DNA from: an uncultured Candidatus Berkelbacteria bacterium
Lineage (GTDB): Bacteria > Patescibacteriota > UBA1384 > XYA2-FULL-43-10 > CAINNR01
Direction: 5' to 3'
DNA: 64,000 nt
NCBI GenBank assembly: GCA_903851235.1
Contig: CAINNR010000015.1
Span: forward strand, 11,327-75,326
Shown: positions 16,680 to 52,403 of the stretch, piece by piece
How positions within the stretch are numbered: position 1 is the stretch's first letter
Layout of the letters: each line of letters opens with the position of its first letter
Position numbers and translations under genes: made by a program
Notes under the pieces: model-generated
Database searches by the model: none
What the model was told of the DNA's origin: nothing
What the model saw: the letters and a program-made list of their open reading frames with translations, nothing else

Positions 16680-16757
<78 letters not shown>

Positions 16758-16772
<15 letters not shown>

Positions 16773-25249: not shown

Positions 25250-25314
25250 GGCGTTATGGTGAAGTTGCGCGAGGCAATCACCAAACAGTACGATTGAAAA
25301 GGACTGATCGAATA

Positions 25315-25914: not shown

Positions 25915-25922
25915 GAACACAA

Positions 25923-25960
25923 GCGCTCCCCGACAGATCATGTCCGGGAGCGCTTTTTTC
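25923..25960 (+). terminator. rho-independent terminator
   Basis: gcgctccc-cgacagatcatgtcc-gggagcgc followed by TTTTTT. Confidence 0.65.
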
Positions 25961-26001
25961 ATTTCAATTAAACACACTAAGGTGTGGTATACATTGCTGT
26001 G

Positions 26002-33246: not shown

Positions 33247-33248
33247 AA

Positions 33249-34673: not shown

Positions 34674-34723
34674 TGATCCCTCCGTTTCAAATTAGTCGAA
34701 TGAGTCTAATCGGACCAATTGGA

Positions 34724-36049: not shown

Positions 36050-37413
36050 GATATCTGACTGGTATCATAATTTCCACCGTATTGGAAGTGCATTGTGTCG
36101 CAAGTGCAGAAAAATTTTCCACCCCAAAAGAAACCGTCTTTTTGGAAAATATCACTAACAGTTTTTGGTATATTAGTCGAGCAGCTAGAACTATCCCTTG
36201 CTTGACCGCCGGAGATTGAACTTCGTTTATTGTTTGGGTTTTGGTTAGGGTTTATATCAATTGCTGTCCCGAATCCATGTGGGCTGATTGTGCCTTTGCG
36301 ATTGGTATTTTCTCTAACACTAGTTCCTTGAACGTCGCTAAAATTGTAAGTTACACCAGCGGCTTTCAAATCGGCCTGAACTTTATCAAGCGCCGAGGTT
36401 ATTGCTTTGTTGACTCCACCGGAGATGTTGTGACCCATGAACGAGTAAGAAACAATATTTTTTCCCGGGGTGCCGACGGCATTCTGAACATCTGTAATAT
36501 TTTTCCAAATTCCAACTTGGTCATATTGCCCCAAACTGGTTCCGACGGTACGAAAATCCATTGAGGAGTTGGAGCCGGAGGTGGCACCACAATTATCAGA
36601 CCCTCCGGTTGCACCGGAACCGGCGGCTGTAGTAAATCGCCATCTCGTTTTTGCGTCGCTCTCGGCGCCCAAACTTGTCATTGCGATTTGCGATATGTCA
36701 AGACCAACCCTATTAGCCGGTCGTGCATTATTCAAGACATATCCCGAGTCAGTATAGACATATGGTCCGGAGTCGATGACTGCCAGCACCACAGTTTTCC
36801 CGTTATATTCAACTTCAATTCTTGGGCACTGGTTAACATTTCCATGGCAGGCGACTGGTATGCTTGTTAGGGGAAGCGCAGCAAAGTATTCGGTCGGTCG
36901 ACTACAGCCGGTTGGAAGACCGCTTCTGCCGACGCAGTTGTCGACATCATCGGTGCATGTCATACACTCCTCCATGTCTTTAGCTGATGATAATGCCGTT
37001 GAGTCTTTATGGCACCATTTATACTTCATATCTCGGTTATGTTGGGATTTATCACATTTGCCGCCAAAGGTTGTTGTCACTATGTTTTCATGCCAATCGG
37101 TTGTAGCGCCAGCGGGAATTGCAACTGTTCCGGACAAACCACTGTTCATGCAAGCTTGGGCGCTGTTGCCATTTGGATCGCCGATTGAGCGAACGTAAAA
37201 AGCGATTGCAGAACCCCAAGCGGCGGCTGCCGACAGACCCATAAAAAGAACAACAAGAATCGAGACGATTATTGCTTTTCGCCACTTATTCTTATCACCA
37301 CCTATGGTGAAAAAGTTTTTGACTTTATCAATTGGGTTCGAGGATTGGCCACCAGTGGTGGCATTTGGCGTTTCGTTTTGTTCTGTTGTTTCATCAGGCA
37401 TAAAATTTACCAA
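35995..37413 (-). CDS. bifunctional cell-wall hydrolase: RlpA-like DPBB domain + M15 (LAS-family) peptidase domain
   Basis: TM anchor; PTEYFAALP...CPRIEVEYNGKTVVLAVIDSGPYV...GLDISQIAMTSLG matches the RlpA/DPBB core (V.V.N..NGKSVVVRVNDRGP); C-terminal HGFGTAIDIN and WGGKFFCTCDTMHFQY match M15 peptidase metal-binding motifs. Confidence 0.6.
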   Translation of the reverse strand: MVNFMPDETTEQNETPNATTGGQSSNPIDKVKNFFTIGGDKNKWRKAIIVSILVVLFMGLSAAAAWGSAIAFYVRSIGDPNGNSAQACMNSGLSGTVAIPAGATTDWHENIVTTTFGGKCDKSQHNRDMKYKWCHKDSTALSSAKDMEECMTCTDDVDNCVGRSGLPTGCSRPTEYFAALPLTSIPVACHGNVNQCPRIEVEYNGKTVVLAVIDSGPYVYTDSGYVLNNARPANRVGLDISQIAMTSLGAESDAKTRWRFTTAAGSGATGGSDNCGATSGSNSSMDFRTVGTSLGQYDQVGIWKNITDVQNAVGTPGKNIVSYSFMGHNISGGVNKAITSALDKVQADLKAAGVTYNFSDVQGTSVRENTNRKGTISPHGFGTAIDINPNQNPNNKRSSISGGQARDSSSCSTNIPKTVSDIFQKDGFFWGGKFFCTCDTMHFQYGGNYDTSQISWPDFKLLPADTTPGCPK

Positions 37414-37480
37414 TTACTTTCAATCAAAATATAAAATATATATGATAGATTTCTGATAATCTCGAAATGATTTTGAAAAA

Positions 37481-39274
37481 TTAATTATTCGGGTAAAGCG
37501 AATCACATTTGGCTTTTTGCTGGGTTAACGAATTGGTCTGCGTTCTTGCCACCAAATCCCAGATAGGAATTTTGGAAAGATCCGGTTTTTGATTGGTGTA
37601 ATTTGTCCAAATTATCTGGCATTGCTCAAGCGTCGGGTTACCGGTTGAGCCAAACCATGTGAGAGGGTTATACCAAACTGTTTGGCTGGTTGACGATGGA
37701 GTTGTTGTGGCCGCTTGGCTGGTTGACGACTGGACCAAAGTTGTCCCAGTCGCTGATGGCGACAAAGTGCTACCGGAGGTTGGAGAACTGGGATCCATCA
37801 GCCCAGGTTGAGCAACCGGCGACGTTGTCGTGGTTGAGACGCTGGCGGTGGTTTTTGCTGCCCCACTCTTAATATTGACCAGTCCAATGTAGTCGTTATA
37901 ACCGTGACCAATTGCTCTTTTTTTGTAAATCGACACACCCCATTTGTAAAGTCTGGCTTTGTCGTCGTCGGTCAGACCGGCGGTATTTAGCGGGATGGAT
38001 AGAGTTTTTGGTAGATTGTCATAATCAATAATAAACGAACCAACTTCCTTGAATGTCAGCGGCGACTTAAAATAACCGCCGTAACCCAGGTCGTGCCACG
38101 GAGTGGCATTGATAACGACACCGAATTCAGTTTTGGCATTGACCTTTGGTGTTGCCCCATTCACTTTGGACAAACCTTTTGGACTCGGGTAGGCATCGCC
38201 GATCGTAATATTCAGTGTATTGCCACTTACGGTCATCGAAGTTTTATCATAACCGCTGGCGCGAAAATATCCCAAATAACCATCTTTGTAAAAAGTGTTG
38301 TTCATGTAAGTCGAATTCATCGCCATCATTACTTTGTCCAGCGCCAAGATACAGGTCATTTCGGTGTAAAGTTGCGTGCTTTGTCCGTTAACCGCGGTTA
38401 CTTTATGGTCGGCGCCACGGGTGATATCAATAGAATTTACATTGGTTTTGTAACCGGAAGCGCTAGAACTTACGGTATATTTTCCGTTCGGTGCGGCAAC
38501 TTCAGCCACCCAATAATTGCCGAAATTATAAGTTTTCTTTACAGCTGATATGCCGCCAGTTGCGTTGCTGGCGGAAATAAAATGTCCTTTGTCAATTTTG
38601 TTAGGGTTTTTAAAATTGGCGTCGTAACTTTCCGGGTCGACTGGAGCGACCGTGCCGCGAACCGCATAATCGGTGACAATTACTTTTATGCCGGAGTTAT
38701 CGGGAACAGCGTCTTTTAACTGCGTGCATTTCCCTGACATTGGGATGCCAATACAACCGTGAGTAGCGCCAGAAGAAAAATGAATACCTAAATGGCGACA
38801 CTTTTTCCCGTCCTTAGTTTCTTGATTAGCGGGGCAAACCGGATCACCGCCAAAAGTTGGGTTGCCGTCTAAGTTTAAGAACCATTCTCCACTTAAAGCT
38901 CCGGTCAGAGGTTTGGTCCAATCCGCGGCGCTGTAGACACCCAACGATGTCATACAAGTGGCATCAGTAGGAGCTCCTGATGTTCCGCATCCGGCAATAC
39001 TTGGTTGATAAATACTTTCTTTAATTTTTGTTGGCGAAGTGCCGACATTAACCGGAGTGATAATAATGGGACCGCTGCTATTATAGCCAGTTAGCGCACC
39101 CTCGCCTGTTTGAGGATTTATGGCCACAACAATCAACTGAATGTTTCCGGCATTTGTACTTGGGGACAATGTATCGGCGGCGATTTTATTGAGATAAATG
39201 TATATTCCCAGAGCAATTAATCCCAAAAAAACTACCGACAAACCGACAAACAAGAAAACTTTTGATCGTTTCAT
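37481..39274 (-). CDS. membrane-anchored L,D-transpeptidase (YkuD)-like domain protein with Ser/Thr-rich C-terminal region
   Basis: TM anchor; RHLGIHFSSGATHGCIGIP resembles the YkuD catalytic H...S.GC(I/V) motif; C-terminal low-complexity S/T-rich tail. Confidence 0.4.
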   Translation of the reverse strand: MKRSKVFLFVGLSVVFLGLIALGIYIYLNKIAADTLSPSTNAGNIQLIVVAINPQTGEGALTGYNSSGPIIITPVNVGTSPTKIKESIYQPSIAGCGTSGAPTDATCMTSLGVYSAADWTKPLTGALSGEWFLNLDGNPTFGGDPVCPANQETKDGKKCRHLGIHFSSGATHGCIGIPMSGKCTQLKDAVPDNSGIKVIVTDYAVRGTVAPVDPESYDANFKNPNKIDKGHFISASNATGGISAVKKTYNFGNYWVAEVAAPNGKYTVSSSASGYKTNVNSIDITRGADHKVTAVNGQSTQLYTEMTCILALDKVMMAMNSTYMNNTFYKDGYLGYFRASGYDKTSMTVSGNTLNITIGDAYPSPKGLSKVNGATPKVNAKTEFGVVINATPWHDLGYGGYFKSPLTFKEVGSFIIDYDNLPKTLSIPLNTAGLTDDDKARLYKWGVSIYKKRAIGHGYNDYIGLVNIKSGAAKTTASVSTTTTSPVAQPGLMDPSSPTSGSTLSPSATGTTLVQSSTSQAATTTPSSTSQTVWYNPLTWFGSTGNPTLEQCQIIWTNYTNQKPDLSKIPIWDLVARTQTNSLTQQKAKCDSLYPNN

Positions 39275-39312
39275 AATCTCCCCAAAATTAATTTAATTTA
39301 TTCATAATAATA

Positions 39313-40815
39313 TTATCGAACCGGTCCAACCGTTGTACCGCTGACAAATTGCCAATTAAATCTATCAATGATTTTGGGATCGCCGCCCAAATATGTCATC
39401 GCGGTCGGACTGATGTCCAAGCCGGCCGGATTGCTTTTTTGTGGTGAACAGCCGCCGACATTTATCCCACTTTCGACCGATGGTCGATCCGGTCCACAAA
39501 TATAACTCTTATCGACGGTATTGCACGGACCGCTGTCAACAACCGCCAGGATCACCGATTTTCCATTTGCCGGGTTTGTAACTTTAATCCGCATACATTT
39601 ATTTATATCGCCGTTGCACTGTTGTGCGACTGCTCCGTATGGCAAAGAGGCGAAATATTGGGTTGGACCATCGCAACCGGTAGAAATGTGACTGCCACCG
39701 GCGTAGCACGGATCACCATTGTCAGCGCACTTTCCATCTTTGCCACAACCACCGAACTGAGTTGTCCGAATATTTGTTCGAATTAAGTCTTGGCAAGCGC
39801 AGACAAAAGTTGCTGGGAAACTTTTGAGCCCGGAATAAGTAATTGGGGAGACAACATTATAACTTCGATCTTCGCTTCGTGGTACCAGAATATCCGGGTT
39901 TAGATCACCTCGCCCTGGAATGAGCGGAACGATACGGGTTTTCACAGCGAAACCGTTGATCCAACTTTGGTATTTGGCATCATCAGACAAACCGGATAAA
40001 TCCGGATCGAATTTTAACGAAGTTGTCTTGATGACCGATTCAAGTGGAAGTTTAATAGTCTGCAAACTTTTGCCTGAAGATGCAATCTGTTTGGCGCCGG
40101 ACCAATTTTCGGACACGGCATAAACATCAAAATAGACATCGGCTTTTGGCACTGCGCTGGTTCCACCGCTAATTATCCAACTATTTCCAAGTTTTATCGG
40201 CACGGTAAAAGTTGCGGTTGACGGGATTTGTTTATTTTGTACTTGGCTTAATGAAATATAATTGCGCAGATAATGGACGTCATTTTTGCTCAAATGATAA
40301 AAACCTTGGTAGCCGGCAGCGTAAGCGCCCCAATTATAAAGACTGTACATCAAATCAGTTTCGCGATCGACAAAATAATTATTTTGCACGCTTCCGCCGT
40401 TTGTCAGTAAGGTTGAAATTACCGCTGTTCCGGTTGGGCTCTTAAGGTGAACATCGGCGGCTCTTTTTGCGTTGTATTTTCCACCGGAGAGATAGACGGC
40501 GTAACTGCATGAGTTGGGGCTCGGAACGCTAATACTGTAATTACCGGATGAATCAGTTGTTGCCGAATAACTTTTATCGCTACAATCTACCAGTGTGACG
40601 GTAACTCCGATCGCAACTTTGCCATAGATGGCGCTTTCCAAACTATAGTTGACGGCATCCAAACTCTCAAAAACTTTTCCTTTAAAGACTGCGCTGTTAA
40701 GTTGATCGGCTTTAATAAAAGCGAGAAAAAATATCGCGATTACGAATAATACGCAGGCAACCACAATTAAGGATACTGTTGTCGAAACCCTGACATTTTT
40801 TATTTTCATAATCAT
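39313..40815 (-). CDS. membrane-anchored carboxypeptidase-regulatory-like domain + RlpA-like DPBB domain protein
   Basis: TM anchor; GKVAIGVTVTLVDCSDKSYSATTDSSGNYSISVP (CarbopepD_reg-like); C-terminal PTQYFASLP...CMRIKVTNPANGKSVILAVVDSGP...AGLDISPTAMTYLGG DPBB core. Confidence 0.55.
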   Translation of the reverse strand: MIMKIKNVRVSTTVSLIVVACVLFVIAIFFLAFIKADQLNSAVFKGKVFESLDAVNYSLESAIYGKVAIGVTVTLVDCSDKSYSATTDSSGNYSISVPSPNSCSYAVYLSGGKYNAKRAADVHLKSPTGTAVISTLLTNGGSVQNNYFVDRETDLMYSLYNWGAYAAGYQGFYHLSKNDVHYLRNYISLSQVQNKQIPSTATFTVPIKLGNSWIISGGTSAVPKADVYFDVYAVSENWSGAKQIASSGKSLQTIKLPLESVIKTTSLKFDPDLSGLSDDAKYQSWINGFAVKTRIVPLIPGRGDLNPDILVPRSEDRSYNVVSPITYSGLKSFPATFVCACQDLIRTNIRTTQFGGCGKDGKCADNGDPCYAGGSHISTGCDGPTQYFASLPYGAVAQQCNGDINKCMRIKVTNPANGKSVILAVVDSGPCNTVDKSYICGPDRPSVESGINVGGCSPQKSNPAGLDISPTAMTYLGGDPKIIDRFNWQFVSGTTVGPVR

Positions 40816-40821
40816 ATTTTT

Positions 40822-42969
40822 CTACATACTTTCTTGGTCGCCGGGGGTTTGGCCGGATTGGGCCAGAAGTTGCTCCGGATTGGTGGTGATTACCTGATCC
40901 TCGGAGTAGGAAGCTATGACTTTGATCGCCACATGATTCAAGCCGGCAAAAAACAAGCCTTCGCCGACATCGCTTTCCAGGAGAAGATATTTTTCACCCT
41001 CGGTTAAGCCGAAAGTTTCGGCGATGATATCAACTGACGCCGTCGATTGTTTCAAAAGAATTTGCATTGATGAGTTGGAAACAATTGATTTTCCATATCG
41101 TGATGAGAGGAAATCCTCGACATCTTGGCTGATGATCGTTAATCCCAAATAGTATTTTCTGGCGCGTTTCGCCAAGCCGTGGAGGAATTTGGCCGAGTCT
41201 TCGTACTGCATCATCCACCAAGCTTCATCAATAATCATCAACCGGCGACGCATATCCATCCGAATTTTGGTCCAAATATAATTTAGAATCGTGTACATTG
41301 CCACCGGTCGGAGTGCTTCCTCCAAATCACGGACGGAGAAGACGACAAAACCGGGTTTTAGTTCAAAGTTGGTCGGAGCATTGAACAGTCCGGCAAATGT
41401 TCCCTCAACGTACTTTGACAGCCTCCTGGTGATACTTTCGGTGCCGTTCATGTTGGAGAGAACGTTGTAAAAATCCTGCATAATCGGCGGTTCGTTTTTC
41501 TGGCTCTCCGGATCGGTGGTTATATCCTTTAGGGCATATGCTTCGTACAGACCTTTTTCAACCAATGAATCCTCCTCCGGTGTTAAACCGGCAACCATCA
41601 AATTGATCAAACCGTGAACCGAAGAGATATTCGATCGCAGAACATCCTCGCCTGACTCTTTCTCTGGATCGAGTCCGCGCGGCAAATCAAAGGGATTAAT
41701 TCGCTGCTGGGAATTTAGCGAATAGCGTAAATAACTGCCACCGACGGCATCGCAAAGATTTTTGTACTCCGATTCCGGATCGACAATAATAATATCGGTG
41801 CCGAACATCAAACTTCGCAAGGCTTCCAATTTGATCATGTAAGATTTACCCGAACCGGACTTGGCAAAGACGACCGAGTTGGCATTTTCCAGCGAGAAGC
41901 GGTCGAAAATGATCAATGAATTATTGTGGCGATTAATACCGTATAAAATTCCATCCTCCTGGGTCAACTCCGATGAGGTGAAGGGGAAGATTGATGAGAC
42001 TGAGCCGGTGTCCAAATTTCGCAGAACGGAAATTGAGTCGCGCATCATCGGTGCGGTGGAGATAAATCCCTCTGACATTTGTAACAGCGTTTCTTTGGTG
42101 TAAATTAACATTCCACCCAAAGTTGATTCTAACTGTTTAGTTACAGTGTTTAACTCCTCGAGTGTGTGAGCGTAAATCGTAAAGTATAATCCCAATTGGA
42201 AGAGTCGAACCTCACCGCGTTGCAAGACATCACGCAATGATTCAACATCACCAAGCGCAGTTTCCAACTCCGGGTCGCGCGGTTGGCCCTTTTCTTGGGC
42301 AATCATAAGTGATGACTGAATTTTGCCCACTTGGCTTTTCAGATCTTTCATAACATTAGTGGTTTCCAGCGGATGGATGTGCATGCCGATGTCCATTGTA
42401 ATGTCATAATTAATTAGCGGTGAAAGCCAATTGGCGTCAAGATAACGCGGATAGGTGTAGACGAAAAGTGTTTTACAAAATGTGTCACCGAGTTGCAAAT
42501 AATTTGGATTAAGGACGAAGGCCGCCGGCGCAATAATGTCTCGAACAGTTAACATTCCCTCCTGGAAGATTTTTTGCGCTTCCCTGACCTCAAGATTCTC
42601 TTGAGCAATGGTGCGAGGATCGGTGCTGATCGCAGTTGGCTGATCGGTCAAATTGGGTTTACTTGTGGCGAGCGGAGTCGAACCATTGGTCTCACTGGAC
42701 AAATCTGGTTTGGGCGTCAGCGACTGGACCGGAATGGCGACTTGTGGCGGCAATTTGAATTTTGTCGTCACATTCGCCTGATCCGAAAGACCGGTTTTGT
42801 TACCTGTCTTTTTCACTTGATCGGCTTGCCAAAAATCAGCCGAGTCGTTAGTCGGCTGTACCGGATTTGCCGAATTCACCGGCGCGCCAAAAGTAGCAGC
42901 AGGTGTTGCGTTGATTGGAGTACTTGCTGGCGGAGTATCGGGAATTAAATTTTGGTTTGTTTGGGCCAT
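40822..42969 (-). CDS. virB4: VirB4/TraE/PrgJ-family T4SS ATPase (C-terminal ATPase part)
   Basis: Disordered 130-aa N-terminus, then DUF87-like region; Walker A AKSGSGKSYMIK, Walker B MIIDEAWWMM, C-terminal motifs typical of VirB4/CagE. Confidence 0.85.
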   Translation of the reverse strand: MAQTNQNLIPDTPPASTPINATPAATFGAPVNSANPVQPTNDSADFWQADQVKKTGNKTGLSDQANVTTKFKLPPQVAIPVQSLTPKPDLSSETNGSTPLATSKPNLTDQPTAISTDPRTIAQENLEVREAQKIFQEGMLTVRDIIAPAAFVLNPNYLQLGDTFCKTLFVYTYPRYLDANWLSPLINYDITMDIGMHIHPLETTNVMKDLKSQVGKIQSSLMIAQEKGQPRDPELETALGDVESLRDVLQRGEVRLFQLGLYFTIYAHTLEELNTVTKQLESTLGGMLIYTKETLLQMSEGFISTAPMMRDSISVLRNLDTGSVSSIFPFTSSELTQEDGILYGINRHNNSLIIFDRFSLENANSVVFAKSGSGKSYMIKLEALRSLMFGTDIIIVDPESEYKNLCDAVGGSYLRYSLNSQQRINPFDLPRGLDPEKESGEDVLRSNISSVHGLINLMVAGLTPEEDSLVEKGLYEAYALKDITTDPESQKNEPPIMQDFYNVLSNMNGTESITRRLSKYVEGTFAGLFNAPTNFELKPGFVVFSVRDLEEALRPVAMYTILNYIWTKIRMDMRRRLMIIDEAWWMMQYEDSAKFLHGLAKRARKYYLGLTIISQDVEDFLSSRYGKSIVSNSSMQILLKQSTASVDIIAETFGLTEGEKYLLLESDVGEGLFFAGLNHVAIKVIASYSEDQVITTNPEQLLAQSGQTPGDQESM

Positions 42970-42980
42970 TTCAAGTTGAT

Positions 42981-43769
42981 CTAATTAGTCAAATTTGTTT
43001 TATCAACGGGTGGACTTGCTACAGTTGCCGTTACAGCCCCCGTTTTATTATCAGCATTTGTGGCCGGTGTTTCCGCTGTCGTTGTCGGCGCGATTGCCTT
43101 CTCGGCCGCTTCGGCCTGTTTTTTCATTTTGTCCTGTTCGCGAACGTATTCGGTATTATCAATCACCGGTGTTTCGTCAACAGTGTTGACCGGCTTTTCA
43201 ATATCCAGTTCAGTTGGTGTTTCCCTACGGCTGACAATATTCGCCTGAAGCGTTTCCAAATCACCCAGCCGTTCTTTGTCGGCGATGCCGGGATTATAAA
43301 AATTGTAAAAAAGTTCAATCAATTCGCCGGTTGTTAACTGTTTGCAGTGAAGGCCGATTGATCCGAGTCCGGAGGCGATGACACCGGCTCGCTCTCGCAG
43401 TTCGTTGCCGTGAGTTGTGAAAACCTTCTCGGAAATTTTCAGCAGCGAAACCGAATTACCGCGATTTAGCAATTTATCGACAAAAGACAGATTTTGAAGC
43501 TCAATATTCTCCCAGCCAATGACAACATAAAAACGTTTTTTCATAATATTCGCCATGTTGATCAGCTCGGAAATAAAGTCAACATAGTCAGCTGTTTGGG
43601 CTTTTAAAAGTTCGATGGTCTGTTCCGCCGCTCTTTTTCGAAGTTTGGCCAGATACGGGGTCAGGTCAAGTTTTCGCGACTGAACCAAAATTTGGATCGG
43701 GAAGTGGAGTGAATTTAAGAAACCTTGAAATTGAAAAATTATTGAGTTCTGTTCCCGCTCGCTTTTCAA
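42981..43769 (-). CDS. VirB4/Tn916-Orf16 N-terminal-domain-like protein (split from ATPase part)
   Basis: IIFQFQGFLNSLHFPIQILVQSRKLDLTPYL...RFYVVIGWE resembles the conserved N-terminal region of Gram-positive VirB4 homologues (Tn916 Orf16 / TcpF); ends in a Thr/Ala-rich disordered tail 11 nt before the ATPase ORF, in a different frame. Confidence 0.4.
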   Translation of the reverse strand: MKSEREQNSIIFQFQGFLNSLHFPIQILVQSRKLDLTPYLAKLRKRAAEQTIELLKAQTADYVDFISELINMANIMKKRFYVVIGWENIELQNLSFVDKLLNRGNSVSLLKISEKVFTTHGNELRERAGVIASGLGSIGLHCKQLTTGELIELFYNFYNPGIADKERLGDLETLQANIVSRRETPTELDIEKPVNTVDETPVIDNTEYVREQDKMKKQAEAAEKAIAPTTTAETPATNADNKTGAVTATVASPPVDKTNLTN

Positions 43770-43932
43770 GCCGAAATTGATCGCGGTGACATCAAGAATC
43801 AGGCGGTACGAACCGTCCTTTAGGATGACAATTCCGTCCTCAACGCCGGCAATCTCCAGATTCTCCTGCGTCGATGCGGCAAGTTTTGTTTTGCTTGAAG
43901 CCAGAATCCCCTCCTTAGCTAATCAAATCAGT

Positions 43933-44349
43933 CTAATTTGGACTAGTCCGTCCGCGTTTATCTATTACACTTGCCAGCTTTTCAATATCGGCACGCGAAT
44001 ATCGTTTGTTGGCGTACGGATCGGCAACTCTCTCAACTTTCGGCTGATAAATCTCAACCCGGACATTATTTTCGCTTTTATGCCAAAGTCTGGTTTTCGG
44101 GTTGGCGGCATAGGCCATGGCGTTTTTCAGAAACTGACCAAAGGAGCGACCATTGACTTTAACGAAACAGATGCAAAATGTCAGGATAAAAATCGGCAAA
44201 GCCAGAACCCAGTTGATCGGGGATGGAAGTGAACTAATGGCGATATAACCGGCGCCGCCACCGAGAACGGCATAGACAAACTGGACCATCGAAAGTGGTC
44301 CCAAAATTTTATCCTCGATATCGATTTTTTGTGGCACTTTGAACTGCAT
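43933..44349 (-). CDS. PrgI/VirB3-like small two-TM T4SS protein
   Basis: 138 aa, conserved MQFKVPQKIDIEDKILGPLSMVQFVYAVLGG start and two adjacent TM helices as in the PrgI family; position upstream of VirB4. Confidence 0.4.
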   Translation of the reverse strand: MQFKVPQKIDIEDKILGPLSMVQFVYAVLGGGAGYIAISSLPSPINWVLALPIFILTFCICFVKVNGRSFGQFLKNAMAYAANPKTRLWHKSENNVRVEIYQPKVERVADPYANKRYSRADIEKLASVIDKRGRTSPN

Positions 44350-44601: not shown

Positions 44602-45831
44602 TTAGGCGGCTTTATTAATTGCTTCAACCGGTGAAACAGCGGCGATCTCCGGATCCGCAGCTTTATAAATATCAACTATACTATTCAGAATGCCCCACAA
44701 ACTTTCACCATTTCCATCGGTAGATTTTGAATTATCCGGCATCGCCGGTTCACCAATACCGTCTTGGAGGAGGGAATCCCAATTGTTTTCATCATCGGAA
44801 TCCCTCGCGCTCAAATTGGTGGTTGCGGTGGCTGTCGATATCAAAACCCTTTCTTTTAGCGCTGTTTTGTTCGCCATTTGGCTCTTAATTTGATCAAAAA
44901 AGAAATGACTTTCTTCAATCCAAGCGTTCAGAGCCGATTTATTCTTCATCAGATTTCGCTGATTTTCCGCTGGCATTACCCGCCAAATTGAATTTAAAAA
45001 ACCATTAAATTCACCGCCGGATTGCAGATAAGCGGCGATTTTCTCGGCCAAAATTTCCTCCGAAAGCCAGACCATTTTTTCCGCCTTATCTTCATCGGTT
45101 GCTTCCGGACGACTTATTGCCGCTGAATATTGATTGAGGGCGTTAACCGATCGATATGATTCTCTCAGACTGAGATCTCCGCCGTCAGTCACTAAGCCGC
45201 CGATTTTTGCTCGCATTTCACCGCTCTGACCGACTCCGTTGCGCGAAAGCCCGTGGGCGATTTCGTGCTTTAAAATGTGGACGATATTTTGTGGCACGCC
45301 ATCAACCTTTTGAAACAATTCATCATAAATTATAATCACCGGATAGTTTTTATCATACTCGCAAACCTTATCCACTCCGCCGCCGGATTCGCGGCGAACA
45401 ATGCGAAATGCCAGCGCCTGCAAAGTTTCGGCGTCCAAAGTTCCGTTGGCGACCAATTCAGCCAAAGCACAGGTGACCTCGACTTTCTCCTCGGGCGAAA
45501 AATTTCCGTAAAGTATTGGCTCCACCATCTCAAAATATTTTAACGTCTCAGATAAATTTTTCTCACTCAGATCGACGCCCTCGGCCCAACCTTTCGTACA
45601 ATTAACAATTTCCTCATCACTTAAGACTCCGGTTTGTTTTATTCGCAAAAAAGACTCGATTCCGGATCGTTGTTCAAGTCGTCGATTTTCTTTGTCGATA
45701 AGTGTTTTAATTTGAGCTTCCTTTTGCGGGTCCGGTTTGGCTTCGGGCTTGGCCTCGTCAGTCTTCGGCAACTCAACCGGAGTGGGAGTTTCGGCGCTAG
45801 AATCAATTAAATCCGATGGTAATTTGGGCAT
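44602..45831 (-). CDS. cytoplasmic HExxH zinc-metallopeptidase-like protein (candidate T4SS-associated effector/processing enzyme)
   Basis: NIVHILKHEIAHGL contains an HEIAH motif; no signal peptide or TM; Pro/Glu-rich N-terminus. Confidence 0.4.
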   Translation of the reverse strand: MPKLPSDLIDSSAETPTPVELPKTDEAKPEAKPDPQKEAQIKTLIDKENRRLEQRSGIESFLRIKQTGVLSDEEIVNCTKGWAEGVDLSEKNLSETLKYFEMVEPILYGNFSPEEKVEVTCALAELVANGTLDAETLQALAFRIVRRESGGGVDKVCEYDKNYPVIIIYDELFQKVDGVPQNIVHILKHEIAHGLSRNGVGQSGEMRAKIGGLVTDGGDLSLRESYRSVNALNQYSAAISRPEATDEDKAEKMVWLSEEILAEKIAAYLQSGGEFNGFLNSIWRVMPAENQRNLMKNKSALNAWIEESHFFFDQIKSQMANKTALKERVLISTATATTNLSARDSDDENNWDSLLQDGIGEPAMPDNSKSTDGNGESLWGILNSIVDIYKAADPEIAAVSPVEAINKAA

Positions 45832-45885
45832 AATTTCAATCTTTCTATTGACAAATTATAGGCGTTTGCTAAAATATAGTTAACG

Positions 45886-45948
45886 ATCGGGTGGGTCGCC
45901 GACCTGCAAGACTGTAAATTGCACTTAAGCGATCATTAAACACCCGAT
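45886..45948. ncRNA. candidate structured cis-element, copy A (43-nt conserved core in a variable closing stem)
   Basis: atcgggtg | tgggtcgccgacctgcaagactgtaaattgcacttaagcgatc | attaaa cacccgat; core 41/43 identical to copy B; outer stem differs from B by a compensatory G:C to C:G change; 55 nt upstream of the 409-aa gene start. Confidence 0.45.
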
Positions 45949-46196
45949 TTTGTTTTTGCTAAGAATTCCAGAATTTCAGCATCTTTAATTTTTATATCAG
46001 CTTTTTTAATGCGATAAGATCCTATGGCGTAAATATGAGCTGAAGATTGTTTGCCGATGCGGCGAAAATGTTTTTGCAGTTTTTGTTTTTCACCTGCGAA
46101 AATTATCAACGACTTATTTTTATCACCAGTAAACGCAATAACCTTTGGTTTATTGGTGTTTTCGATTTTACCACTCTGATCAATTTCAATTCTCAT
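45936..46196 (-). CDS. hypothetical protein (86 aa)
   Basis: Basic small ORF within the T4SS cluster, no motif recognised. Confidence 0.3.
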   Translation of the reverse strand: MRIEIDQSGKIENTNKPKVIAFTGDKNKSLIIFAGEKQKLQKHFRRIGKQSSAHIYAIGSYRIKKADIKIKDAEILEFLAKTKSGV

Positions 46197-46211
46197 ATTT
46201 CCGCATAATTA

Positions 46212-46655
46212 TTAAAATTGATTTAATATGCTGGCGATTTTCTTTGTCACATTTATAGTTAACTCTTCGGTGATGGTACTTTGGTCAAGCTTTTTGCCCT
46301 TTAAATTTTCAAAATAGGAAACCAAATCGGCCAAAATAAGGTTATAAATTTTCTCGGCTGTCGCCGTCTTGTCGGCAACTGACAATCCAACAAACGCTGT
46401 CTCGATTCGCGGATCGGAAAGTACAATTCGCTTGGCGGCGGCATCAGCCAAAGTTTTTAAATCGCCTTTTTGGTGCAAAACGTTATATACAAAAAGCCCG
46501 ACGTGATTTCCCGCCACAACATGAGCAGTGATATTTAAATTAACGGTCTTTTTTATCTGCTCAAAACTTTGACCGGGATGATTTCTGATAATCGTCACCG
46601 CCTTTTCAGCGTCGTCAAAGATTTTTTTTAATTTGTTTTTCAGTTCGTCAGCCAT
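46212..46655 (-). CDS. hypothetical cytoplasmic protein (147 aa)
   Basis: Acidic, predicted helical; directly downstream of the VirB6-like gene. Confidence 0.35.
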   Translation of the reverse strand: MADELKNKLKKIFDDAEKAVTIIRNHPGQSFEQIKKTVNLNITAHVVAGNHVGLFVYNVLHQKGDLKTLADAAAKRIVLSDPRIETAFVGLSVADKTATAEKIYNLILADLVSYFENLKGKKLDQSTITEELTINVTKKIASILNQF

Positions 46656-48947
46656 TTATTTTTCCTCCGTTTCAAATTTAGCAGATGGGTCAATTTTCAA
46701 AGCAATCTCTCTGGCAGTGAGTAAATCGTCACGAGCAACACTTTCTTGACCGGCTTTGGCTAATCGCTCAAGTTCATTTGGGTCGCCGCCGTTTTTTAGC
46801 TCCTGAGCGACGAATTGAAGTGTGGCTTCCTGTCTTTCAGCCATCCTGATTGCTTGCACACCGGTAGATCTTGCAACACGAGTCTGGAGGATTTTGAGTT
46901 GTTCAGCAGCTGCTGGAGTAATTCCTTTTATTTGAACATCGAGTTCTGGAACATGCCCTATTCCAAAGCCAACACTGGTTGGCTTAAACATGTCGGCCAT
47001 GGTTTTTGCACTATCGATACCTCCCTCACCTTTGTTTTTCAATGTTTCATTGATATCATCCAGGCGACTTTCAATCCCGGCCATATCTACTGGGACTGCG
47101 GAAGATGCCCGGCTTTCCTCCTCTTCCTCCTCGGCGTCATAATCATCACCCGCACCAGCGGGTTGTCGTTCTGCTCGTTGTCGAGCCCTTTGTGCTGCTT
47201 GACGTTCTGCATTAGATTGAGGAACTCTTGCGCCTCTATCAACACTTACGTCACGATGGTCTGTCACCATATAGCCACCTTCGCCCGGTTTGCGAAAAAA
47301 TTCCTCAATTGTTTTAACTTCACCTTCCGGCATACTTCCGTCTTCCAGTTCTGCCAATCGTTTGTTATTTACTCTTCTTCTGGCTTCCTGAGTTGATGCA
47401 ATGTAGGCGGCAATTTCGTCTCCTCTTTTTTCTGGATCATTTAGGTTGACGCCCTTGCCACCCTGATCCTTTGATTTCATTAAATTTACCTTGAAATAAT
47501 CCTCAATACCTTTTCTATATTCAGGTTCGGTTGAAACTCTATAAACATCTGCCCGTTCTCTGGTTCCATCGGCGTTCCTGTGATACAACTGTCTTTCGGC
47601 AAGATCTTTAAGTTTAAACTGGTCTTTGTAATTTGGACCGGATTCTTCTGCGCCAAGATCGCCAAACACAGCTTTTAGCCGTCCCTTGGTGACTGGGTCT
47701 TTAGCCCGGACATCTTCCAACCACTTTGGCCCTTTGTCTTCCAAGAAGTTCATGATATTAATTTTTTTCCTGATTTCTTCTTGTTTTTTTATCTTTCTAG
47801 CGTACAGATCTCTTGTGACCGTGCCCTTACCAATTGCCCGGTCTATTGATCGCACGACAGGCAATTTTCTCGCGCCTTCTCTTGCCCAGTTTTTTCCAAC
47901 GCCGTATTGAAAACTGACATAATCTTTTGCGGCTTTAACTCCGACTCCTCCAGTTGCGTTCCAAGCTGCTCCGCCGGTTTTGGACCAGGCTTTTTTGCCG
48001 AAGTTTGCCCAAGCGCCGACGGCGGCACCACCGGCTTTAAACGGCGAAGTGATCGCCATATACAAGCAAAGACCGGCAAAACCCATTTGCAAAACCCATG
48101 ATCCATCAGGTCCGATAGTATTTAGAAACTCGCCTGCCAGCCAGAGCCAGAAAACGGAAATTACCGGCATAAAAACCCATTTTAAGAATTGACTCCACCA
48201 CTGTTGAAAGTATTTTTTGGTAATCGGCAAAATCATTGCCATAAAAGCCGCCGGAGAAATGCAAATTAGAAAATACAGGAAATAATTTCGGATTAAAAAG
48301 ATGAAGGCCAAAATTGCGACTAAAACGGCGCCGACTGCGACGAAAATTTGTTTTAGAATGTAGACGAGAATGTATCCTGGGTAATTGCCGGTAAAACCGG
48401 CCGGACCTGTTGGCGATTGTTTTATCAAACCATTAAATGCTCCGGTGACATTGCCGGCGTTGTCACCGGTTAAGAAGGCGGAGATTGCTACATTGCCAAT
48501 ATCCAACAACATTCTAGCGATTAAGAAGCTGAAATTTGCCAGAATTATAGCGATAATAAATGTTGGTAGGAATTTTTTGACCGCGTACGAATCCAGCTGA
48601 ATTCGCAAGATATTCATAAAGGCGACCCAAATCAGAACGGCAAGAACCAAGGAATCCACAACTTTCATGATTGTGTACCAAATTGTGACCGTGGTCGCGC
48701 CCATGCCGGTAAAGCACAACGAAGCGTCTTTGACAGTGCCGGTTGCGGCTTTGACAGTCGAATCGCAACCATCTTTTGGCATCATAACTTGATAAATCGG
48801 TTCGACCGTTGGCAATGCGGCTTGAGCTTTGAGCGGAGAAAAGAAAACAAAAAAGCTGAATAGAAAAATCGTTACTGAAAAAATTAGCGTTTTGTGAAGA
48901 AAAATTAGGTTTTTGATTTTTTTATTCATATTTGCAACCGATTTCAT
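46656..48947 (-). CDS. VirB6/TrbL-like polytopic membrane protein with extended hydrophilic C-terminal domain
   Basis: N-terminal signal/TM, at least 7 TM helices in the first 330 aa, then about 400-aa charged C-terminal region (extended VirB6 type); position in the T4SS cluster. Confidence 0.55.
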   Translation of the reverse strand: MKSVANMNKKIKNLIFLHKTLIFSVTIFLFSFFVFFSPLKAQAALPTVEPIYQVMMPKDGCDSTVKAATGTVKDASLCFTGMGATTVTIWYTIMKVVDSLVLAVLIWVAFMNILRIQLDSYAVKKFLPTFIIAIILANFSFLIARMLLDIGNVAISAFLTGDNAGNVTGAFNGLIKQSPTGPAGFTGNYPGYILVYILKQIFVAVGAVLVAILAFIFLIRNYFLYFLICISPAAFMAMILPITKKYFQQWWSQFLKWVFMPVISVFWLWLAGEFLNTIGPDGSWVLQMGFAGLCLYMAITSPFKAGGAAVGAWANFGKKAWSKTGGAAWNATGGVGVKAAKDYVSFQYGVGKNWAREGARKLPVVRSIDRAIGKGTVTRDLYARKIKKQEEIRKKINIMNFLEDKGPKWLEDVRAKDPVTKGRLKAVFGDLGAEESGPNYKDQFKLKDLAERQLYHRNADGTRERADVYRVSTEPEYRKGIEDYFKVNLMKSKDQGGKGVNLNDPEKRGDEIAAYIASTQEARRRVNNKRLAELEDGSMPEGEVKTIEEFFRKPGEGGYMVTDHRDVSVDRGARVPQSNAERQAAQRARQRAERQPAGAGDDYDAEEEEEESRASSAVPVDMAGIESRLDDINETLKNKGEGGIDSAKTMADMFKPTSVGFGIGHVPELDVQIKGITPAAAEQLKILQTRVARSTGVQAIRMAERQEATLQFVAQELKNGGDPNELERLAKAGQESVARDDLLTAREIALKIDPSAKFETEEK

Positions 48948-50797
48948 AATATTTTCTTGACAGAAAAATTAGGCGGACTGCCGGTGGCACTCCATTTGGC
49001 TGTTAGGTTTGCCTTTGTAACTACAATTGTAATTACTGTTTCATTGTCAAAAACTTCAATTTCCGGAGAGCTATTTTTACTGATTTTAGCGAGGTAAGCG
49101 CTGTCTGAACAAGTGACTTTCACTTTGATTTTTTTATTGGTTGAGTCCGGTTCGTAGAACACTATTTTTTCTGGATAACTTTGCTGATTTCCACTTCCGC
49201 CGTTTGTTGTTGAGTCCCAGACAAAAATGTTGCCATCCAATGGTTTGTTAACCAGTGAGTTTGCCTTACTGAAGTCACTGGCAGAAAGTGTCAGAACGCC
49301 GCGAAATTCACTTGGCGAATTGCTGGTTGCCGATGCGACAGCTGTGGAAGTGTCTGTGCCACCTGCTGGCGTTGTTGCCGCTGGCGTTGTTGCCGGTGCC
49401 GTTCCGGTGTTGGCTGGACTGACAGTTGTTGTATCAACGTTGGCAAAGTTGATTTTCAACCCGATAAAACTTGTTAGCAAAAGCCGAGCTTCGGTCATGC
49501 CCCAAGCCGCCGCGTCGTGAATTAGTTGTGCCAACCCACAACCCATGCTGTTCATAATACCAACGATGTTTGTACCGGCGCTACCCAAACCGCCACAGGA
49601 GCTTTCCTTGTCCGGTCCGACAACCGTTGGGGTTTCAATAATTCCTTTGATTTTCTCAAAATTTTTGACGGTTTCATTTACAGCACTAGAAAAAGCATCG
49701 AGTGACAGGTAAACTTCAGCATCAGGTTTATCTTCAAGCGCTTTATCGTATTTAAAAATTTTCATTTTATCTGTGCAAGGCCATTTGCCACCATTGGTTC
49801 CATCGTTGAGTTGAGCGATATCTTTTTGTAATTGTTGGGCGTCGGAATACAAAGTGCCCATTACTTGGTTTCCAGCATCATTTAGGACCCATTTGACGCT
49901 AGAGGTTGTATCACCACCCCATTTTGTCTCAAAAGCGGTCAATGATGCTCCGGCTATGAGACCGATGCCGGCTCCAACTAAACCGCCGACTTTTGCGCCG
50001 GCAGTTCCACCGAGTGCTAAATTCAGGGCTGCTAAATTAACGACTCCTGTGAGTGCTGAAGTTCCATTATCTTTCCAGTATGTCCCTGATTGTGGTGCAA
50101 TAGTTAGCAATGTTCGAACATCACCTTTCAGTGATTCCCATTTAGTTGACATATCAGTACAAACCGCAGTTTTATCGCTAGTATTTAGGGTATAAAAAAC
50201 TTTTGTTCCATTCCAAGTGCCGGAGCTTATGGCTTTGACCATAGTTGCCAAATCAGGATTTGATGTGTTTAATCCGGCACATAGACTATTGTCTGCTGCA
50301 GTAAAATCTCCAGGGGTAATCTTTCTGTAAGAATTTGAATTGTTCAGGTCTGTAGTATATGCGTTACCCACAACCCAGAGTCCGGTTCCTGCCGGATTCC
50401 AAACTATCAGATAAATTGGAGAAGACCAACTGGAGATTAGTGATGTTTTAGCGCTGCAAACCGCGCTGCTCGGATTTACCAATTTCTGGAGATAAATTTG
50501 ATCGAATGAAGTAGCTTTTGTACCGTCTGATGTGGTAGGGATATCATCTGCATTTATTTGATCTGGAGTTATAGGGCCCACATCATCGAAAAGGTATTGA
50601 ACGGACGTGTCTCCTTGCTTCATTGTTACACTTGTTTCTGTGATGTCACTGCTGGTGAATTGAAACGAAAGTGATACCGAACCGGGCGCTGGTGGGCTGA
50701 CTGCCCTGGCTTTTTGGACAACAAAAATCTGGCCGAACGAATTAAAAACAATTCCGGCGATTATGACTGCGACCAAGAAGATCTTCGTCAGCCGCAC
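48944..50797 (-). CDS. secreted Ser/Thr-rich surface protein (617 aa)
   Basis: Signal peptide MRLTKIFLVAVIIAGIVFNSFGQIFVVQKARA; Thr/Ala/Pro-rich linker ATTPAATTPAGGTDTSTAVA; stop overlaps the VirB6-like start by 4 nt. Confidence 0.45.
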   Translation of the reverse strand: MRLTKIFLVAVIIAGIVFNSFGQIFVVQKARAVSPPAPGSVSLSFQFTSSDITETSVTMKQGDTSVQYLFDDVGPITPDQINADDIPTTSDGTKATSFDQIYLQKLVNPSSAVCSAKTSLISSWSSPIYLIVWNPAGTGLWVVGNAYTTDLNNSNSYRKITPGDFTAADNSLCAGLNTSNPDLATMVKAISSGTWNGTKVFYTLNTSDKTAVCTDMSTKWESLKGDVRTLLTIAPQSGTYWKDNGTSALTGVVNLAALNLALGGTAGAKVGGLVGAGIGLIAGASLTAFETKWGGDTTSSVKWVLNDAGNQVMGTLYSDAQQLQKDIAQLNDGTNGGKWPCTDKMKIFKYDKALEDKPDAEVYLSLDAFSSAVNETVKNFEKIKGIIETPTVVGPDKESSCGGLGSAGTNIVGIMNSMGCGLAQLIHDAAAWGMTEARLLLTSFIGLKINFANVDTTTVSPANTGTAPATTPAATTPAGGTDTSTAVASATSNSPSEFRGVLTLSASDFSKANSLVNKPLDGNIFVWDSTTNGGSGNQQSYPEKIVFYEPDSTNKKIKVKVTCSDSAYLAKISKNSSPEIEVFDNETVITIVVTKANLTAKWSATGSPPNFSVKKIL

Positions 50798-50813
50798 TGT
50801 GACCCTCCTAAGG

Positions 50814-51485
50814 TTATTTCGATATCCTATTAAGATTATCTAACAATTTCTGCCAATAATCAACTTTTTCTTTATCGCCAATTAATTTTTCGATCGAAAT
50901 TGAGTCCTCGATCGCCGTTTTATTTATTGGATCAACGGTATAGGCTTTGGCGAAAGCGTCGGCTGCTTTCTGCCGGAAGCCTGGTTTTAATTCACTAAAC
51001 ACCTGGTCGTTGTCGGCCAATTTTGCGTTTGCCAATCCGAGAAAAACCCAGCTTTGATAATCCCCTGGACCATTGTTGGCACAAAATTCGAGGTTGACGA
51101 CGGCGACATCCGACATACTGTTTTCAATTAGATTTTTATCAAAGTCCAGATCACAAATTTTGGAATCGGCACGATCAATGATCTTAAGTAAATCATTATT
51201 TTTCTCGTCAAGCAAAAAACTTCGCAGCACCAAAATGTTCGCCGCTGAATCACGGGTGGTTTTTTCCAGATTTTTTGCATCGGTATTTTGTGGCTCAAGT
51301 GTTTGGGCTTTTTGAAATTTTACCAATGCCAGAGTGTAATTTCGCTCGGCAAGTAAATTTTTACCATCGGAGAGATTTTTTTTGTAGACATAATTTCGCC
51401 AGGGAATGGCGAGAGCAAAAAATAGGATCAGCCCGATGATAATCCAAAATACAGTTTTTAGGTTTTTGTTTTCAGTAACTTTCAT
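50814..51485 (-). CDS. membrane-anchored hypothetical protein (possible TPR-like helical repeats)
   Basis: Start placed at MKVTENKNLKTVFWIIIGLILFFALAI (TM anchor); helical C-terminal region; the longer upstream extension would overlap element B. Confidence 0.4.
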   Translation of the reverse strand: MKVTENKNLKTVFWIIIGLILFFALAIPWRNYVYKKNLSDGKNLLAERNYTLALVKFQKAQTLEPQNTDAKNLEKTTRDSAANILVLRSFLLDEKNNDLLKIIDRADSKICDLDFDKNLIENSMSDVAVVNLEFCANNGPGDYQSWVFLGLANAKLADNDQVFSELKPGFRQKAADAFAKAYTVDPINKTAIEDSISIEKLIGDKEKVDYWQKLLDNLNRISK

Positions 51486-51519
51486 AAAGTCTGTCGCTAT
51501 TGCCAAAATTATTGGTAAT

Positions 51520-51576
51520 AATCGGCTGGGTCGCCGACCTGCAAGACTGTGCATTGCACTTAAGCGATCGCCGATT
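51520..51576. ncRNA. candidate structured cis-element, copy B
   Basis: aatcggc | tgggtcgccgacctgcaagactgtgcattgcacttaagcgatc | gccgatt; 35 nt upstream of the 50814..51485 gene start and 32 nt after the uppP stop. Confidence 0.45.
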
Positions 51577-51608
51577 CTTTGTTTTTAACAATAGAGCTGT
51601 TTAGGCAT

Positions 51609-52403
51609 TTATCTCGTAAAATATATTATTGCTACAATTGCGGCGATGATTAGGCGATAAATGGCAAAAAGTGAGTAGCCGTGTTTTTCAATGTAGCGGA
51701 GCAGAAATTTAATGGCGAAGAATCCGGTTATGGCGCTGACCAAAATGGCGATGAAAAACGCTAAATTGAATGATGACCAAGAGTAATCTTTTAGCGTCAA
51801 AAGAAAGGCACCGAGCAGCGTCGGGGTTGCTAGCAGGAAACTGAAACGAGTTGCCGACTGGCGATCCATGTTCAAAAACAAGCCGGCGGTAGTTGTGATG
51901 CCGCTTCTGGAAACGCCGGGAACGATGGCCAAAATTTGAGCGACACCGACGATAAAACCTTTGAGATAACCGATATCTTTAATTTGATCCTTGCCGTTGG
52001 TGATTGAATCCGCCAGCCACAGAAGCAGACCGAAGAACGCCAGTGTGATGGCGATTAGAAGCTCATTTCGGAATGCTGTTTGGGCCAATTTATCAAGAAA
52101 GTAGCCGCCGAGTGCCGCCGGAATTGTCGAGACGACAATAATCCAGAAAAGGTTGTGAGGATATTTGGTTTGTGGCTTGCCGTGCGGGTTTAACCCATCG
52201 CCGATTATTGAAATCCAATCGTGCCAAAAGAAAGCGATAATTGCGATCGCCGTGCCGAAGTGAAGAGCGACATCAAAATCCAGCCCCTGATAATGCCAGT
52301 TAAAAATATAGGGAATAACTACCAAGTGACCGGAAGAGGAAATCGGTAAAAATTCACTGATTCCTTGAATGATGCCGAGAATGATGGCGTGTAAAATTGT
52401 CAT
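51609..52403 (-). CDS. uppP: undecaprenyl-diphosphate phosphatase
   Basis: N-terminal GIIQGISEFLPISSSGHL motif and 8-TM BacA topology. Confidence 0.85.
   Translation of the reverse strand: MTILHAIILGIIQGISEFLPISSSGHLVVIPYIFNWHYQGLDFDVALHFGTAIAIIAFFWHDWISIIGDGLNPHGKPQTKYPHNLFWIIVVSTIPAALGGYFLDKLAQTAFRNELLIAITLAFFGLLLWLADSITNGKDQIKDIGYLKGFIVGVAQILAIVPGVSRSGITTTAGLFLNMDRQSATRFSFLLATPTLLGAFLLTLKDYSWSSFNLAFFIAILVSAITGFFAIKFLLRYIEKHGYSLFAIYRLIIAAIVAIIYFTR

Follow-up and report, generated by a model that had tools for sequence, protein, structure and literature searches.

A putative structured small RNA gene in Berkelbacteria that looks like the surviving half of an undescribed Patescibacteria cassette

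Introduction

The antisense RNAs IS10 RNA-OUT, CopA, RNAI and FinP are structured, imperfect hairpins of about 70 nucleotides (nt) that are transcribed from a strong promoter inside a selfish element, and in which interior loops or bulges are typical and the apical loops set the specificity. In Bacillus subtilis, the duplexes formed by txpA/RatA, bsrG/SR4 and yonT/SR6 trigger RNase III-dependent decay of the toxin mRNA (PMC4147584, PMC3834814, PMC5848175), and SR6 acts inside a polycistronic transcript, where it reaches the 5' side of the next gene (PMC5848175). Herein, we describe a hairpin element present in two copies, A and B, in a 64,000-nt stretch of contig CAINNR010000015.1 (hereafter, the window) from an uncultured Candidatus Berkelbacteria bacterium, a member of the Patescibacteria (Candidate Phyla Radiation, CPR), in whose tiny genomes very few regulatory RNAs or selfish elements have been characterized. 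An earlier, sequence-only reading of this DNA had left three options for the element, namely a cis-regulatory leader RNA, a small-RNA gene and a miniature mobile element. The second and the third were each borne out in part and the first was not: each copy looks like a gene for a small RNA (sRNA) that is the surviving half of a small, undescribed inserted cassette of the Patescibacteria, made up of a hairpin RNA and a 148-residue protein. For the function of this pair, we give about an even chance to the reading that the sRNA represses the nuclease-like gene of its own cassette as a cis-antisense RNA, in the layout of the 3'-overlapping type I toxin-antitoxin (TA) pairs.

Two copies of one hairpin in the window

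Copy A (45886-45948) and copy B (51520-51576) have in common a 43-nt core that is identical at 41 of 43 positions. A search of the whole window with this core, allowing at most 3 mismatches, returned exactly these two sites (0 expected, 100 shuffles), and a covariance-model scan, run over the whole window with filters off, yielded no third copy of the hairpin. Each copy folds as a single extended hairpin. The outer stem is formed by the inverted repeat ATCGGGTG/CACCCGAT in copy A (RNA form AUCGGGUG/CACCCGAU) and by ATCGGC/GCCGAT in copy B (RNA form AUCGGC/GCCGAU), the two differing by a G:C to C:G swap; copy A additionally has an 8-nt insertion, ATTAAACA, in its 3' arm. The terminal part is in both copies a 5-base-pair (bp) stem UGCAA/UUGCA (TGCAA-N9-TTGCA) with a 9-nt apical loop. 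The positions, the core identity and all of these features had been read correctly from the letters; what had been missed were a 6-bp middle stem, GGUCGC/GCGAUC, with one G.U pair inside it, and an extension of the repeat into a promoter-like stretch upstream (45871-45934 versus 51506-51569, 88% identical). Between the middle and the terminal stems, both copies have a symmetric 5x5 internal loop, CGACC/CUUAA.

The fold of copy A has a predicted energy of -25 kcal/mol (z -3.5), and cmsearch scored copy A at 69.6 bits (E 1e-20) and copy B at 87 bits (E 1e-26). The predicted sRNA gene of copy A, which belongs to the subtype with the 8-nt insertion, covers 45883-45955 on the + strand (about 72 nt), the hairpin being followed by the U-run UUUGUUUUUG (8 T in 10 nt). 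That of copy B covers 51518-51587 (+, about 70 nt), with the hairpin at 51521-51575 followed by the U-run UCUUUGUUUU, and is solo, that is, it has no partner open reading frame (ORF). The weak model matches at 11873-11917 and 3894-3950 were ordinary terminators without the core, and generic terminators in the window scored 17-20 bits against the model.

In Rfam 15 at gathering thresholds, the window contained tRNA-Ser alone and no family at the element, in agreement with the sequence-only reading, which could assign it to no known RNA family. Likewise, nothing was found at the element when L009 and L010 (three copies together) were searched against Rfam at E values up to 5, and ARAGORN found no tRNA or tmRNA there. 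The structured RNA family is new and absent from Rfam, and a description of the RNA or of the protein family was not found in the published literature searched.

Conserved structure and covariation of the hairpin family

Seven further copies came from other Patescibacteria metagenomes and brought the family to nine copies with a single conserved fold. A metagenome scan with the core gave two more contig sets, L008/L009 and L010, the latter with two copies; those of L001 and L028 were found by profile search of loci fetched through the neighboring proteins, and the much more distant loci L018-L027 and L029-L036 were reached by following the partner ORF. A 20-mer scan of the genome collection gave one chance match, on a Myxococcales contig, where the similarity goes no further; viral contigs gave no match in two DNA-pattern scans or in one protein scan, and L005 has a 23-bit model match inside a coding region. 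Contigs that carry a cassette are often very short (that of L028 is 1,355 nt long and breaks 10 nt upstream of the hairpin), which would fit assembly breaks at a multi-copy repeat.

The conserved architecture consists of the outer stem, a 2-nt bulge, the 6-bp middle stem, the 5x5 internal loop and the 5-bp terminal stem. In the Infernal alignment of ten sequences, standard pairs occupied 95.9% of the pair cells (28-43% when the partners were slid), and compensatory changes on both sides were found at 9 of the 20 pairs, values reached by none of 500 shuffles. In particular, the terminal stem UGCAA/UUGCA has been fully rewritten twice, as CGCCG/CGGCG and as AAACG/CGUUU. MAFFT failed to place the 8-17-nt insertion in the 3' arm; the insertions were cut by hand for the model, and the native sequences were re-aligned by Infernal. 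The final pair counts thus come from an alignment fitted to the model, with which the MAFFT-only alignment of nine sequences (94.4% paired) and L029 agree, the latter lying outside the model training set and scoring 57 bits (E 5e-16) with all three stems rewritten. Since nine covarying pairs were obtained once the homologues had been added, the alignment supports a selected RNA structure, as the sequence-only reading had argued from the swap between the two copies. None of the contrary observations that it had named was made: the copies are few, their substitutions preserve the structure, and there is no match to the end of an insertion sequence (IS).

The sequence of the internal loop (CGAYY/YUUAA) is kept while the stems covary, as are its closing pairs, and the apical loop is the most variable part of the hairpin family. 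From the 5' arm of the outer stem to the 3' arm of the middle stem (the 43-nt core plus 6 nt), the L009 hairpin is identical to that of the window at 47 of 49 bases, and the integrase of the L009 organism is merely 49% identical to that of the window; such near-identity despite a diverged integrase implies strong constraint, recent transfer, or both.

Orientation of the RNA gene

The genes around both copies all lie on the minus strand. On the + strand, copy A is preceded by a promoter-like site at 45848-45875 (TTGACA, 16-nt spacer, TG-extended TAAAAT; 11 of 12 positions), which was the top site of a 9-kb scan and has its predicted start near 45882-45883. The site of copy B at 51481-51509 (+) is weaker (TTCATA, 17-nt spacer, CAAAAT; 8 of 12) and falls in register with those of the other copies; its -35 region overlaps the codon (51485-51483) at which the downstream minus-strand gene starts. 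A sigma-70-like -35/-10 match of 8-12 out of 12 stands at a fixed distance in all eight copies having upstream sequence, the -10 ending 4-8 nt ahead of the start of the RNA model; in the ninth copy, L028, the contig stops 10 nt upstream of the RNA. In eight of the nine copies, 7-9 of the 10 nt that follow the hairpin are T, against 4-7 in the other sense.

The pairing pattern is likewise asymmetric. Read in the opposite sense, 83.5% of the pair cells pair, and 26 cells that hold G.U would become A.C mismatches, one of the G.U pairs being conserved in 9 of 10 sequences. Model scores at the same loci are at most 18.6 bits on the reverse strand versus 52-90 bits on the forward strand, and seven of the nine copies are predicted to fold more stably in the element sense (for L018, -28.8 versus -17.7 kcal/mol). 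Because of the promoter, the U-run and the G.U pairs, the RNA looks like a + strand transcript, antisense to the genes on either side.

The partner open reading frame

Copy A is met head-on by an ORF of 86 amino acids (aa) at 45936-46196 (-), the last 20 nt of which overlap the 3' arm and the tail of the sRNA gene. Comparison of this ORF with P0136 and P0150 by tblastn aligned residues 1-71 and 110-141, the middle being absent, and it is also homologous to two adjacent ORFs of L001 (60 aa and 88 aa, a split gene). We regard it as an internally deleted remnant of a family of ~148-aa proteins with a predicted RNase H fold. This family gave 108 matches in an indexed search and 1,166 cluster representatives at 50% identity in an exhaustive search. 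No member of it was found by tblastn in phage and plasmid collections, and no credible known family for the ORF was found in Pfam, NCBIfam, PADLOC, PHROGs or a PDB sequence-profile search; the 86-aa ORF, too, matched nothing in Pfam or NCBIfam. The structure of an intact member predicted by AlphaFold2 (predicted local distance difference test score, pLDDT, 95) has the RNase H-like topology b1b2b3-a-a-b4-a-b5-a, its top structural matches were RNase HI (E 2.7e-3 in PDB, 9e-4 in BFVD), and D6, E12, D79, E81 and H121 are conserved in the family alignment. Set beside the core b1-b2-b3-a-b4-a-b5-a of the RNase H-like superfamily, with its acidic catalytic residues on b1, on b4 and after b5, these predictions may indicate a nuclease with an RNase H-like fold.

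At all five independent loci that retain the ORF (copy A, designated winA, and L001, L028, L018 and L029), the ORF and the RNA gene are convergent with their 3' ends touching or overlapping, and the stop codon of the ORF sits in the tail or the 3' arm of the RNA. Since the ORF has no evident promoter and either overlaps the preceding host gene or starts 4-15 nt past it, it must be read within the host operon. Beside the solo copy of L009, an ORF remnant of 11 codons (MRIEIDQSGRV) is still present, and for this reason solo copies such as copy B are most simply explained as cassettes that have lost their ORF. The new RNA family is thereby tied to a large and unannotated protein family of about 150 aa that has no Pfam entry.

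Insertion sites and genomic neighborhood

In the operon sense, the host gene just downstream of copy A encodes a 409-aa HExxH protein (44602-45831, -), and that just downstream of copy B encodes a 223-aa membrane/TPR-like protein (50814-51485, -). The distances from the copies to the respective minus-strand ATG codons, 55 nt to 45831 and 35 nt to 51485, are those given by the sequence-only reading. The start at 51485 is supported by the L001 homologue, which aligns from 51488; on the strength of this alignment, a 246-aa ORF at 50814-51554, having 23 extra codons that run through copy B, was dismissed as an artefact of the ORF finder. Upstream of the copy B site lies bacA/uppP (51609-52403, -; Pfam BacA, E 9.5e-78).

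In relatives, the HExxH gene abuts the preceding gene with no gap (L003, L005, L011 and L016), and the homologue of the 223-aa gene abuts bacA with gaps of 3-12 nt (L005, L013, L015, L016 and L017). Because the genes at both sites abut in most relatives, both copies are, by this comparison, insertions. Neither a target-site duplication nor a terminal repeat was found when filled and empty sites were compared. In L001 and L028, a cassette is found between bacA and a ~225-aa gene, in synteny with copy B, so that one and the same site holds a cassette in these two and a solo RNA in the window. The HExxH site is occupied in the window alone, by the insertion-bearing subtype that is common to copy A and L010. 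Both sites belong to a gene order conserved in Berkelbacteria, namely Mur ligase, integrase, PAP2, BacA, ~225-aa gene, ~600-aa gene and TrbL-like, continuing with a ~150-aa gene, HExxH protein, PrgI, TraC-like and VirB4-like. Cassettes of this kind thus enter between the tightly packed genes of conserved operons, including the locus resembling a type IV secretion system (T4SS), and decay to orphan RNA genes.

The sequence-only reading had associated the element with a T4SS supercluster. Elsewhere, copies stand beside ychF, after a tRNA synthetase gene, after a GIY-YIG gene and in toxin-antitoxin-rich regions, the L029 cassette lying among PIN, Phd and ParE genes and those of L018 and L021 near Zeta-toxin-like and S24 peptidase genes; moreover, the T4SS-like loci of most relatives are without the element. 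A specific link to the T4SS-like cluster is thus not supported by these contexts.

The T4SS-like cluster itself occupies 25234-44349 (-) of the window and comprises PrgI, a 2,414-aa giant protein and other large ORFs, a 715-aa ORF standing where relatives have the VirB4/P-loop_TraG-type ATPase. The cluster keeps its synteny throughout Berkelbacteria beside Mur ligase, a XerC/D-like integrase, PAP2 and BacA, and because of this synteny next to housekeeping genes it looks like a conserved chromosomal apparatus and not like a conjugative element of recent acquisition. In relatives, varying small genes occupy junctions between the core genes from BacA to the T4SS-like locus, being of the 23S_rRNA_IVP four-helix-bundle, PDDEXK_3, GIY-YIG and AbiEii types (these are in L001 at 1-402, 3530-4183 and 9294-9584; in L003 at 3740-4111, 4838-5224 and 15196-15561; in L005 at 3097-3516, 5139-5519 and 15229-15603; in L015 at 11510-12100). 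Judged by this gene content, the locus is a hot spot for several kinds of small insertion beyond the cassette.

L001 has, at the counterpart of the copy A site ahead of its HExxH gene (minus strand, about 9880-9985 of the locus), a different extended hairpin of -24.7 kcal/mol, which begins ACGAUC like copy A, is preceded by CTATTGACA, a 17-nt spacer and TAAGCT, adjoins a GIY-YIG gene and was not detected by the model; it may be a diverged or an unrelated antisense unit. In the window, tRNA-Ser(CGA) at 16682-16772 (-) is directly abutted by a small ORF at 16773-17009 (-) with 34% identity to a GIY-YIG protein of L010, which may be a further small selfish gene that has lodged next to a core gene. 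Four other pairs of direct repeats (46-62 nt, 78-87% identity) occur in the window: 5178-5239/5995-6056, 11890-11943/13452-13505, 13528-13575/15252-15299 and 56726-56771/57392-57437. The last of these looks like duplicated terminator hairpins (AAAAAAAGCGG...CCGCT), and one member of the 11890 pair overlaps a weak terminator-like match of the model.

Proposed mechanism and alternative explanations

On the favored reading, each copy would be a gene on the + strand for an sRNA of about 70 nt with a sigma-70-type promoter, from which transcripts would begin a few bases ahead of the hairpin, and the base of the hairpin together with the U-run would form an intrinsic terminator. The RNA gene would be the 3' half, and the ~148-aa ORF the other half, of a two-gene cassette of about 0.55 kb that inserts between adjacent co-directional host genes with its ORF in the operon sense. 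The operon transcript would pass through the hairpin region, which in this sense is weaker and without a good U-run, to reach the next host gene. Since the RNA gene converges on the ORF, every base of the sRNA would be complementary to the operon transcript, either just past the ORF stop codon or across it. Pairing just 3' of the ORF would expose the duplex to cleavage (RNase III type) or destabilize the mRNA otherwise, and would lower the expression of the nuclease-like gene. Copy A would have kept the deleted 86-aa remnant, and copy B, with its ORF entirely lost, would be an orphan RNA gene; that the ORF has gone repeatedly and the RNA gene has stayed is expected for an antitoxin-like or repressor-like role. 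A search for targets in trans gave scattered complementarities of 11-13 nt that were not clearly above chance. One of them, a 13-nt segment at 309-321 (+) within a 229-aa ORF (7-696), GCAGGUCGGCGAC, complements the 5' side of both sRNAs without a mismatch, where chance alone would give about 0.1 match of this kind.

Several points weigh against this mechanism. The coding overlap between ORF and RNA is small (0-26 nt), and pairing would for this reason depend on an operon transcript that reads through the hairpin. The promoter and the terminator are predictions from consensus matches, and the structural matches to RNase H are weak, with template modeling (TM) scores of about 0.42-0.46. Known type I toxins are mostly hydrophobic peptides of less than 60 aa, whereas the putative toxin here is a soluble protein of 148 aa. 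About four independent RNA lineages were sampled, compared with a protein family of 1,166 cluster representatives. Furthermore, the conserved internal loop is not required by pure cis-antisense pairing and hints at a protein partner instead.

This last point is taken up by the explanation that we rank second after cis-antisense pairing, an unlikely one in our estimation, in which the sRNA binds the 148-aa protein as a type III-like RNA antitoxin, or as an RNA cofactor or substrate. The protein would recognize the internal loop and the G.U pair, both of which simple antisense pairing leaves unexplained; the CGAYY/YUUAA loop and its closing pairs are kept where all three stems have been rewritten and the apical loop varies freely, and the solo copies (copy B, designated winB, and L009) are intact and nearly identical though the proteins of their organisms are 40-50% identical, as would fit a trans-acting RNA. 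However, the known type III systems have tandem RNA repeats upstream on the strand of the toxin (PMC4147584), and the strict convergent, 3'-abutting layout at five of five loci is predicted by cis-antisense pairing and needless for a protein-binding RNA. It is improbable, in turn, that the RNA is functionless and that the selfish cassette merely carries an outward promoter and a one-way terminator for insulation or for transcriptional interference with the host operon. The entire RNA is indeed a terminator-like hairpin with a U-run, and the promoter, which overlaps the downstream start codon or comes within 9-20 nt of it, faces oncoming operon transcription; yet three stems of fixed length, a conserved 5x5 loop and a conserved G.U pair are needless for a plain terminator, and the generic terminators of the window score far below the copies against the model (17-20 bits).

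A hairpin or cruciform acting at the DNA level, possibly single-stranded, which an RNase H/RuvC-like protein would recognize for the mobility of the cassette in the manner of IS200/IS605 ends or integron attC sites, seems to us quite improbable. It would suit the presence or absence of the cassette at precise intergenic junctions and a partner fold that is common to resolvases and transposases, and folded single-stranded DNA sites can also be strand-specific, but it leaves the conserved upstream promoter and downstream U-run unexplained; each cassette has a single hairpin and not one per end, filled and empty sites reveal no target-site duplication or terminal repeat, and a GTTRRRY-type attC core is lacking. 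The cis-regulatory 5' leader of minus-strand T4SS-cluster genes favored by the position of both copies, 35-55 nt upstream of start codons, and listed by the sequence-only reading, can hardly be right. A lone promoter-like site (TTAACT, 17-nt spacer, TATAAT) does lie on the minus strand between copy A and its gene, but this decent match is found at copy A alone and no minus-sense promoter is conserved among the copies; the G.U pairs would be A.C mismatches in that sense, the + strand is indicated by promoter, U-run and G.U pairs alike, and copies are found away from T4SS-like loci, most of which have none.

Going beyond cis-antisense repression, we entertain as a tentative and rather doubtful idea that the 148-aa protein and its hairpin RNA make up a widespread, undescribed two-component system of the Patescibacteria, in which the protein would recognize the internal loop of the convergent RNA, the pair being either a new class of RNA antitoxin and nuclease toxin or a minimal RNA-partnered nuclease that drives precise insertion. 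If the cassette behaves as a toxin-antitoxin or mobility module, RNA-antitoxin biology would extend to a new fold and to a phylum almost without genetics, and annotators would gain a marker for insertions that might otherwise be mistaken for operon regulators.

Comparison with known systems

Like an intrinsic terminator, the element has a G+C-rich stem base followed at once by a U-run in its own sense; unlike one, it combines a predicted promoter of its own with three stems in a fixed architecture, an internal loop that is conserved, and covariation that spans genera. A miniature inverted-repeat transposable element (MITE), a repetitive extragenic palindrome (REP) or an IS end was rejected on the grounds that just two copies are present in 64 kb, with no duplication at the junctions and no adjacent transposase; the homology among copies, which extends asymmetrically into the promoter, bears against these as well. 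An integron attC site was likewise rejected, there being no GTTRRRY core flanking the hairpin, and the nearby integrase belongs to the Mur ligase-integrase-PAP2-BacA synteny that is conserved in relatives without the element.

As in RNA-OUT, CopA, RNAI and FinP, the apical loop is the most variable part of the hairpin. Those RNAs, however, act on transposase, replication or traJ mRNA at its 5' end or leader, in contrast to the 3' end here, and neither IS ends nor a replicon are present. A FinP-like regulator of the T4SS was also rejected in view of the copies beside ychF, tRNA synthetase, GIY-YIG and other non-T4SS genes and of the absence of the element from most homologous T4SS-like loci. 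With the type III TA systems (ToxIN, AbiQ/antiQ), the cassette has in common a structured RNA and, as predicted, a nuclease-type protein, for which the conserved RNA motif could be a binding site; the antitoxins of those systems are, in contrast, tandem upstream repeats on the same strand that are processed by the toxin (PMC4147584). Membership in type III was rejected, every locus having a single convergent hairpin and no tandem repeats.

SymE/SymR and RalR/RalA, in which a cis-encoded antisense RNA accompanies a non-membrane, nuclease-type protein (PMC4147584), are nearer precedents, although SymR overlaps the 5' end and the ribosome-binding site of symE, and SymE and RalR have other folds and no sequence or family relationship to the ~148-aa protein. 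The layout is that of the 3'-overlap type I pairs, in which an sRNA with its own promoter is convergent with the toxin gene and complementary to the 3' end or 3' untranslated region of its mRNA; the sRNA gene here has a promoter and a terminator predicted from conserved consensus matches. This convergent arrangement with complementarity to the mRNA 3' end was found at five of five loci, full complementarity needing read-through. The known type I antitoxin RNAs are 100-220 nt long with several stem-loops, unlike the one hairpin of about 70 nt found here; as with this cassette, type I pairs reside in mobile or accessory DNA and include RNA genes that have become orphans.

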